IMG/VR virus record: IMGVR_UViG_2671181122_000011
Strand: one strand, 5' to 3'
Origin: a virus
Lineage: Duplodnaviria; Heunggongvirae; Uroviricota; Caudoviricetes
Length of the DNA stretch: 11,406 nucleotides
The notes beneath the pieces are model-generated. The model was not told the origin of the DNA, made no database searches, and was given only the letters and a program-made list of their open reading frames with translations. Shown here in pieces: positions 7,093-7,346 of this stretch. Within the stretch, counting starts at the first letter, position 1. Each line of letters begins with the position of its first letter. Position numbers and translations under genes: made by a program.

Positions 7093-7152
7093 GTCTAACG
7101 CTTTATATTTTGGCTCTGTTCTGTCTCTGCGTTTTTGGGTCATTTCTCGCAA

Positions 7153-7346
7153 CCTCTCACTTTTTCGCCTCACTTTTTCAAGCGTCTCACTTCGTCGCAG
7201 TTGGGATTTTCGGTTTTTCTATGTGTGTGTTTCATAAGTATTTTTTTACCCCTCACTTTTGAGGATGTATACAGGTCGAAAAGTGAGGGAGAGCGGGCTA
7301 ATTTTGGCCCTCTTTCTATCCCCCTCGCTTTTGCTCCTCACTTTTA
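7153..7346. repeat. Iteron array with AT-rich spacer: candidate replication origin
   Basis: Six direct copies of C(C/T)TC(A/G)CTT(T/C)(T/G) plus one inverted copy: 7153..7165, 7166..7178, 7183..7195, 7249..7261, inverted 7278..7290, 7323..7333, 7336..7346. AT-rich stretch at 7201..7248. Sits immediately 3' of the rep gene. Confidence 0.6.

Follow-up and report, generated by a model that had tools for sequence, protein, structure and literature searches.

The phoQ-proximal island and its genes

The stretch of DNA analysed here (11,406 nt, hereafter the window) starts with the end of phoQ (1–1461, + strand) and continues with island genes that all lie on the minus strand. These encode a Nu1-like small terminase (2816–3358), a lambda D-like decoration protein (3990–4325), a lambda E-like major capsid protein (4338–5393), a PerC-family regulator (6202–6594), an island-encoded SSB (6485–6895; Pfam SSB, E = 1.7e-16), and an 83-aa protein of PHROG 1231 (6892–7143, start codon ATG at 7143). 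They are followed by two ORFs (7344–7832 and 7853–8743) that together represent one RepA-family helicase gene, rep. The island SSB is likely an accessory to island replication. In its longest ORF, perC overlaps the end of ssb, and the RefSeq form of the product is shorter (90 aa); the PerC homologue on O-island 51 has been named PchE (PMC3378721). The approximately 800 nt between the phoQ stop codon and the first island ORF (1462–2277) carry no long ORF, presumably hold the island end (att site), and perhaps hold a cos site too.

The window region showed 99.9% nucleotide identity to the chromosomes of E. coli O157:H7, and an intact copy of the island (L001, in NZ_AP018488) is located between roxA (ycfD) and phoQ. 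The genes of the intact copy are encoded on a single strand in the order integrase, HTH regulator, Icd-like genes, a DUF4222 gene and a 466-aa 'helicase RepA family protein', followed on the same strand by the 83-aa protein, SSB, PerC, capsid E, decoration D and the Nu1-like small terminase. No portal, protease or large terminase is annotated in this intact copy. Based on location and gene content, the element is an island of the O-island 51 / CP-933C / Sp7 type next to phoQ, described previously as a P4-like cryptic prophage affecting type III secretion (PMC3378721). Fillol-Salom et al. 2018 (PMC6092414) list the islands of strains EDL933 and Sakai at these coordinates as candidate PICIs in their supplementary tables. 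PICIs are recognised as elements of about 10–15 kb that encode an integrase of their own and use a specific att site, have a regulator of the AlpA type and are transcribed in one direction; they carry genes for packaging or interference and none for lysis or tails. The intact relative L001 has these whole-element characters; the copy in the window retains the rep-to-terS half only. The packaging module is also mosaic: in sister islands with the same rep, its place is taken by HK97-type capsids or by fusions of protease and capsid.

A repeat array between rep and the next gene

Since the genes are on the minus strand, the region between the rep stop codon and the 83-aa gene lies 3′ of rep. An initial annotation of this region had listed at least six direct copies and one inverted copy of a 10-mer, and this count was reproduced: read on the + strand, 7155–7345 contains 10-mers of the CCTCACTTTT type as six direct copies (starting at 7155, 7168, 7185, 7251, 7323 and 7336) and one inverted copy. 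The exact sequence CCTCACTTTT is present in iteron 2 (7168–7177), iteron 4 (7251–7260), which directly adjoins the AT-rich stretch described below, and iteron 7 (7336–7345), which overlaps the rep stop codon (7344–7346). Iteron 1 (7155–7164, TCTCACTTTT) and iteron 6 (7323–7332, CCTCGCTTTT) each have one mismatch, and iteron 3 (7185–7194, TCTCACTTCG) is degenerate with an exact 7-mer core, CTCACTT. Iteron 5 (7279–7288, minus strand) is the single inverted copy, exact in sequence and reading AAAAGTGAGG on the + strand; together with iteron 4 it forms a perfect inverted repeat of 11 nt, the centre of which contains the palindrome GTATAC. A decayed partial site, TTCTCGC, is found at 7144–7150 (+ strand), where relatives have CCCCAC or CTCAC in alignments. 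The copies thus fall into two sets, three or four at 7144–7194 and four at 7251–7345, with repeat units of 9–10 bp and spacing of 13 and 17 nt. Base 3 of the repeat is T in all seven copies of the window, the inverted one included.

Matches to CCTCACTTTT with up to one mismatch number six in the entire window, and all six lie inside 191 nt. In 300 shuffles that preserved base composition within 200-nt blocks, an average of 0.88 matches was obtained in total and no more than two fell within any 200 nt, versus the six observed, so that the clustering goes beyond that of shuffled sequence.

The two repeat sets are separated by a spacer of 56 nt (7195–7250), a probable unwinding element with 66% A+T versus 50% for the island. 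Its AT-richness is only moderate; within it, 7208–7248 is the least stable 40-step duplex between the two genes (nearest-neighbour energy −46.3 kcal/mol; island mean −56.9 kcal/mol, sd 4.1), and only 0.8% of the corresponding island segments are less stable. The AT-rich spacer noted in the initial annotation is therefore borne out. Its extent, given there as 7093–7346, needs trimming: the array occupies 7144/7155–7346, and 7093–7143 is coding sequence of the next gene. The same annotation had favoured a shorter start for the small ORF as a way of avoiding overlap with the array. This is contradicted by the conservation of both ATG 7143 (83 aa) and the reading frame in relatives, in which changes within the ORF are synonymous and conservative. 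ATG 7143 is also the start in RefSeq and in independent gene calls, and the 83-aa product aligns to positions 1–82 of the 83 of PHROG 1231. A start at 7143 overlaps no full repeat; only a GTG at 7173 would. On the minus strand, iteron 1 holds GAGAGG, which, as read from the sequence, is the likely Shine-Dalgarno of the 83-aa gene.

Other signals were searched for around the array. No DnaA box or IHF consensus was found within one mismatch in 7050–7400. A scan of 6850–7500 for promoters returned none, including in or beside the array on either strand. The scan of the same interval for terminators returned a terminator-like hairpin at 7295–7310 on the + strand, antisense to all genes and not above the yield from shuffled sequence. 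An Rfam scan at a permissive threshold generated two sub-threshold chance matches only, among them a weak match to SprD (19.8 bits, versus an Rfam gathering score of 100 bits).

Predicted domains of Rep

The rep gene (7344–8743, minus strand) encodes, when intact, a 466-aa RepA-family helicase-initiator with a RecA-fold core. The product generated a hit on AAA_25 in Pfam (E = 5.9e-31), in agreement with the RefSeq product name 'helicase RepA family protein', and AAA_25 was the only Pfam domain in it, with neither a P4-type primase nor a superfamily 3 helicase domain recognisable. The family profile of Rep matched RSF1010 RepA (1g8y, E = 5e-5, residues 154–319), the only solved structure found in this way, and the helicase core is also related to the helicase parts of phage primase-helicases. 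The model of full-length Rep was poor (mean pLDDT 64, with residues 312–394 below 50), and a Foldseek comparison of this model, poor in its middle, with the PDB gave weak matches to KaiC, T7 gp4 and RadA.

Searches with the N-terminal 144 residues and the C-terminal 79 residues generated no family in Pfam. The C-terminal domain (approximately residues 400–466; 7347–7547, minus strand) was predicted to fold as a winged helix (pLDDT 83–91) and is the predicted reader of the iterons. Residue 442 of this domain (Asn, codon AAC at 7419–7421, minus strand) is situated at the N-terminal end of the recognition helix (helix 3), within the motif K-N-F-R-R-W-L in which W446 is invariant. The N-terminal end of the third helix is a common point of base contact in helix-turn-helix proteins.

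The N-terminal domain (residues 1–145; 8309–8743, minus strand) was predicted as an alternating strand-helix fold (pLDDT 70–89). This part of Rep matched a stretch of PHROG 864, 'DNA primase' (E = 3.8e-13), and may represent a relic or variant form of a primase domain.

Repeats and rep are exchanged as one block

In five diverged E. coli relatives carrying the same rep (78–88% DNA identity), every repeat position of the window was kept and the unit was CCCCACTTTT. A change common to all copies is what would be seen, at the sequence level, in a set of sites read by one protein. For many other genomes, the DNA match to the window ended at 7145–7150, exactly where the array begins. The islands of four such genomes (L007–L010, all E. 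coli) were examined. Their flanking genes were unchanged, with DUF4222 upstream and the 83-aa gene plus ssb downstream, and their rep product was annotated as a 'DNA primase family protein'. At the place of the array (rep-ori at approximately 2900–3300 in each), they carried CTCTACC/GGTAGAG in L007–L009 and TGTTCACC/GGTGAACA in L010. As the flanking genes are constant and rep and the repeats both differ, rep and the repeats have been exchanged together as one block, which is located between the same conserved genes in both rep types among the islands compared. The L010 repeat TGTTCACC is the type I iteron of phage P4, which would suggest that these islands and P4-like elements have replication modules in common.

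The layout of the array was conserved beyond E. coli. Read on the rep strand, the stop codon is closely followed by two or three forward copies and then by a reverse copy (+44 to +59); the next copy, some 29 nt beyond it, is forward again, and three or four more forward copies come after an AT-rich gap of about 55–60 nt. The repeat sequence varies, yet this order is found in E. coli, Xenorhabdus, Pectobacterium, Morganella, Serratia, Pantoea and Kosakonia, and a single reverse copy was present at this place in 133 of 139 distinct related loci.

Residue 442 of Rep tracks the variable base of the repeat

The repeat base that differs between islands was found to covary with residue 442 of Rep. 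Among 55 distinct full-length Reps of the E. coli type, Asn442 occurred with GTGAG (CTCAC on the opposite strand) in 25 of 25 and His442 with GTGGG (CCCAC) in 30 of 30. Within residues 400–466, column 442 alone predicts the repeat perfectly, and the next best column reached 0.75. At least seven switches are needed on the domain tree of these E. coli-type Reps, from which residue 442 was left out. In one pair, L160 and L003, the last 45 residues are identical except for Asn versus His at this position, and the repeats differ accordingly.

The survey was extended to 160 further loci with Rep relatives from many genera (80 from species-representative genomes and 80 from IMG/VR), and the dominant repeat core per locus was read from the 330 nt after the rep stop codon. 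GTGAG was dominant at 67 of the 70 loci with Asn442, none of which was a GTGGG case, and GTGGG was dominant at 49 of the 52 loci with His442, none of which was a GTGAG case. Ser442 was accompanied by GTGCG at all seven loci concerned, and Lys442 by GTGGG at 32 of 36. One Lys442 locus was GTGAG-dominant, probably L090, with three copies. The remaining survey loci had fewer than three copies of any of these cores and were uninformative. The pairings of Asn with A and of His or Lys with G would fit common hydrogen-bond preferences. A mixed array was observed at L124 (IMG/VR, Asn442), where the two copies nearest the next gene read CCCCAC and the others CCTCAC; recombination with a breakpoint within the origin, or incomplete conversion of the array, could account for this.

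State of rep and of the island in this genome

In the window, rep is a pseudogene. Alignment to the intact allele in NZ_AP018488 revealed a single-base gap, a 1-nt deletion in a run of five C near 7880, which splits the gene into ORFs of 296 aa (7853–8743) and 162 aa (7344–7832); the frame thus stops after 296 codons and the winged helix is left in a separate ORF. The identical truncated product was present on nine contigs from NCBI, ENA and Logan, including L172 and L173, in which the integrase side is intact. With this many independent occurrences, the allele is no peculiarity of the present assembly.

The island itself is also incomplete. The last position of island DNA is 8766, which lies 23 nt upstream of the rep start; from 8767 on, the sequence is of the e14 type, with a 26-bp Pin crossover-like site (TTCTCCCAAACCAACGTTTATGAAAA, 8769–8794) followed by pinE and mcrA. 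Because of this cut at 8766/8767, the int/regulatory half is not adjacent. The same join is present in the NCBI assembly GCA_001283345.2 and is therefore regarded as real; it was spanned by none of 5,426 complete E. coli genomes. At the corresponding breakpoint, the intact island carries a gix-like core, TTAACCATGGTTTT, and the geometry of the join is compatible with an inversion that had the island and an e14-like prophage at icd as its end points. A simple Pin crossover at the core of the site was rejected as the cause of the truncation, since all 26 bp of the site are still found on the e14 side.

The sequence of the putative origin is intact here and identical over this stretch to that of L001 in the alignment. 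Since rep is frameshifted and the island truncated, the origin of this copy could fire only if Rep were supplied in trans. The autonomous replication after excision that the initial annotation had envisaged consequently does not hold for this copy. In this genome, the island is a remnant with an intact orphan origin beside a dead initiator gene.

Comparison with known replication systems

The locus was compared with satellite and plasmid replication systems. Among Gram-negative PICIs, maintenance of a temperature-sensitive plasmid by the rep-ori segment of EcCICFT073 requires rep as well as ori (PMC6092414). The EcCICFT073 origin (pri-rep/ori) shares with the window the kind of element, the ycfD/roxA–phoQ site and the position of the origin 3′ of rep, and in EcCICFT073-type origins two repeat sets flank an AT-rich stretch, as they do here. 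The difference lies in the annotated initiator: those islands compared here that have another rep encode a Pri-Rep of the 'DNA primase family' with CTCTACC or TGTTCACC repeats, whereas the window has a RecA-fold RepA-family helicase with CCTCACTTTT.

SaPI origins share with the window 6–12 short repeats directly downstream of rep and a central AT-rich region (Qiao et al. 2022, PMC9371898). In SaPIs the helicase is also the initiator and binds the iterons by means of a winged helix at its C-terminus (PMC9371898), as is predicted for Rep of the window. They differ in the motor, which in SaPI Reps is of the AAA+ type (superfamily 3 or 6; PMC9371898) and in the Rep of the window is RecA-fold and RepA/DnaB-like (AAA_25), and in the repeat unit, which is 5–6 bp in SaPIs and 9–10 bp here. 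SaPI iterons are also described as opposing each other across the two sides, whereas in the window six copies point one way and the sole inverted copy is on the rep side, an asymmetry shared by the 133 of 139 distinct relatives mentioned above. Three features common to PICI and SaPI rep-ori modules were found at this locus: an origin 3′ of rep, two sets of short repeats around an AT-rich region, and a helicase (AAA_25) joined to a C-terminal winged helix, here a predicted fold the repeat specificity of which we infer from the N442/H442 covariation.

Phage P4 is likewise an enterobacterial satellite with one multifunctional replication protein, alpha, the C-terminal winged-helix domain of which binds short repeats. 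The P4 protein differs in being a polyprotein of primase, superfamily 3 helicase and winged helix acting with TGTTCACC repeats, versus AAA_25 only and CCTCACTTTT in the window, and P4 has two separated sites (ori and crr) whereas the array of the window is a single block beside rep. In the IncQ plasmid RSF1010, RepC, a protein distinct from the helicase, binds the iterons, and RepB carries out the priming. The helicase core (1g8y) is all that RSF1010 and the window have in common; Rep of the window has a fused DNA-binding domain, and the island annotation lists neither a RepB nor a RepC homologue. Classical iteron plasmid origins (pPS10, F, R6K, RK2) have helix-phased repeats of 17–22 bp, Rep_3 initiators with two winged-helix domains, DnaA boxes, and host DnaB loaded onto the origin. 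The window differs from these in having units of 9–10 bp, no DnaA box in 7050–7400 and an AAA_25 helicase as Rep.

Probable origin function and alternative roles of the array

Considering the repeats and their non-random clustering, the unstable spacer between them, the link between repeat and rep type, the covariation of residue and base, and the winged-helix prediction, we regard 7144–7346 as very probably the vegetative replication origin of this PICI of the O-island 51 / CP-933C / Sp7 type, a reading drawn from comparative sequence data. The Rep-dependent iteron origin 3′ of a satellite rep that had been proposed in the initial annotation is strongly supported by the comparison of islands, through the rep-type-specific repeats, the layout and the covariation of residue and base. 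The satellite plan itself (an origin 3′ of rep, with short repeats read by Rep) is already established, and the arrangement called typical of satellites in that annotation fits the origin plan published for PICIs and SaPIs (PMC6092414, PMC9371898). A literature search found no paper testing this particular rep/ori pair.

The covariation would prove a specific interaction between Rep and the repeat, not that this interaction starts replication, and it is here that another role for the same sites could be considered. Bound Rep might act mainly in regulation, either as an operator or roadblock on read-through into the ssb-perC-capsid genes or in copy control by handcuffing; plasmid iterons serve both initiation and regulation, and the likely ribosome-binding site of the 83-aa gene overlaps repeat 1. 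Transcription passes through the region in one direction in islands of this kind (PMC6092414). We consider a mainly regulatory role unlikely, given that the unstable spacer sits between two repeat sets, that no promoter-like site was found in or beside the array on either strand, that each rep type brings its own repeats to exactly the same place, and that the layout is the same as that of the tested PICI origin (PMC6092414). A regulatory role could coexist with origin function rather than replace it.

The DUF4222 protein encoded upstream of rep, or the 83-aa protein encoded downstream, could be proposed in place of Rep as the protein that binds the repeats, as their genes border the rep-ori block in all islands examined. 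However, both genes remain unchanged when rep and the repeats are swapped together, and the repeat base tracks a residue of the Rep winged helix with no exception in 55 distinct sequences, which makes binding by either flanking protein very improbable.

Still less probable is a packaging role (cos or pac region), in which the repeats would be bound by the Nu1-like small terminase of the island. The island does encode a terminase of this type (2816–3358), and lambda cosB consists of repeated Nu1-binding sites. Yet L002, L004 and L006, which have different capsid/terminase modules (HK97-type or protease-capsid fusions), have the same Rep and the same repeats, whereas L008 and L009, with the same E/D/Nu1 module, have another rep and other repeats; the repeats therefore follow rep and not the packaging genes.

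A chance or low-complexity cluster, a terminator or a small-RNA element, as might be suspected from the 40% T of the region on the + strand, the hairpin at 7295–7310 and the 19.8-bit SprD match, can be practically dismissed, because shuffles yielded at most two clustered matches versus six, positional conservation across genera excludes chance, the hairpin is antisense to all genes and at shuffle level, and the SprD score is far under the 100-bit gathering score.

Proposed mechanism and implications

The mechanism that we infer for the origin, from Rep binding through melting and self-loading to the direction of replication, would run as follows. Rep, acting as a hexameric RepA-like helicase of the RecA fold, would bind the 9–10-bp repeats on both flanks of the unstable stretch by means of its C-terminal winged-helix domain, with residue 442 at the start of the recognition helix reading repeat base 3. 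Binding on two sides may then melt 7208–7248, where Rep would load itself as a ring helicase, and host primase and polymerase, aided by the island SSB, would copy the excised island. A scheme of this kind has been demonstrated for SaPI Reps and their origins (PMC9371898) and, through plasmid maintenance, for EcCICFT073 (PMC6092414).

More tentatively, and with slightly less than even confidence, we propose a general form of this idea. In it, these islands would use a self-loading RecA-fold (RepA/DnaB-like) helicase that carries its own origin-reading winged helix and the specificity of which would be set by a residue-442 code (Asn for A, His or Lys for G, and Ser for C at the variable base of GTGNG). 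In contrast, the satellite initiators studied, SaPI Reps and P4 alpha, have AAA+ motors (superfamily 3 or 6). The code would have been switched at least seven times among E. coli islands, in all copies of the repeat together, and the switches may give mutually orthogonal origins, so that related islands could share a cell without cross-firing.

The main yield of the analysis is an annotation of the probable origin of O-island 51, an E. coli O157:H7 island influencing type III secretion (PMC3378721). To this are added a candidate specificity rule linking residue 442 to base 3, the movement of rep and ori as a unit, and a RecA-fold helicase as the likely initiator. If the residue-442 rule is confirmed, it would allow prediction of which islands cross-activate, orthogonal rep-ori pairs could be built as tools, and the exchange of rep-ori blocks as units between satellites would be explained.
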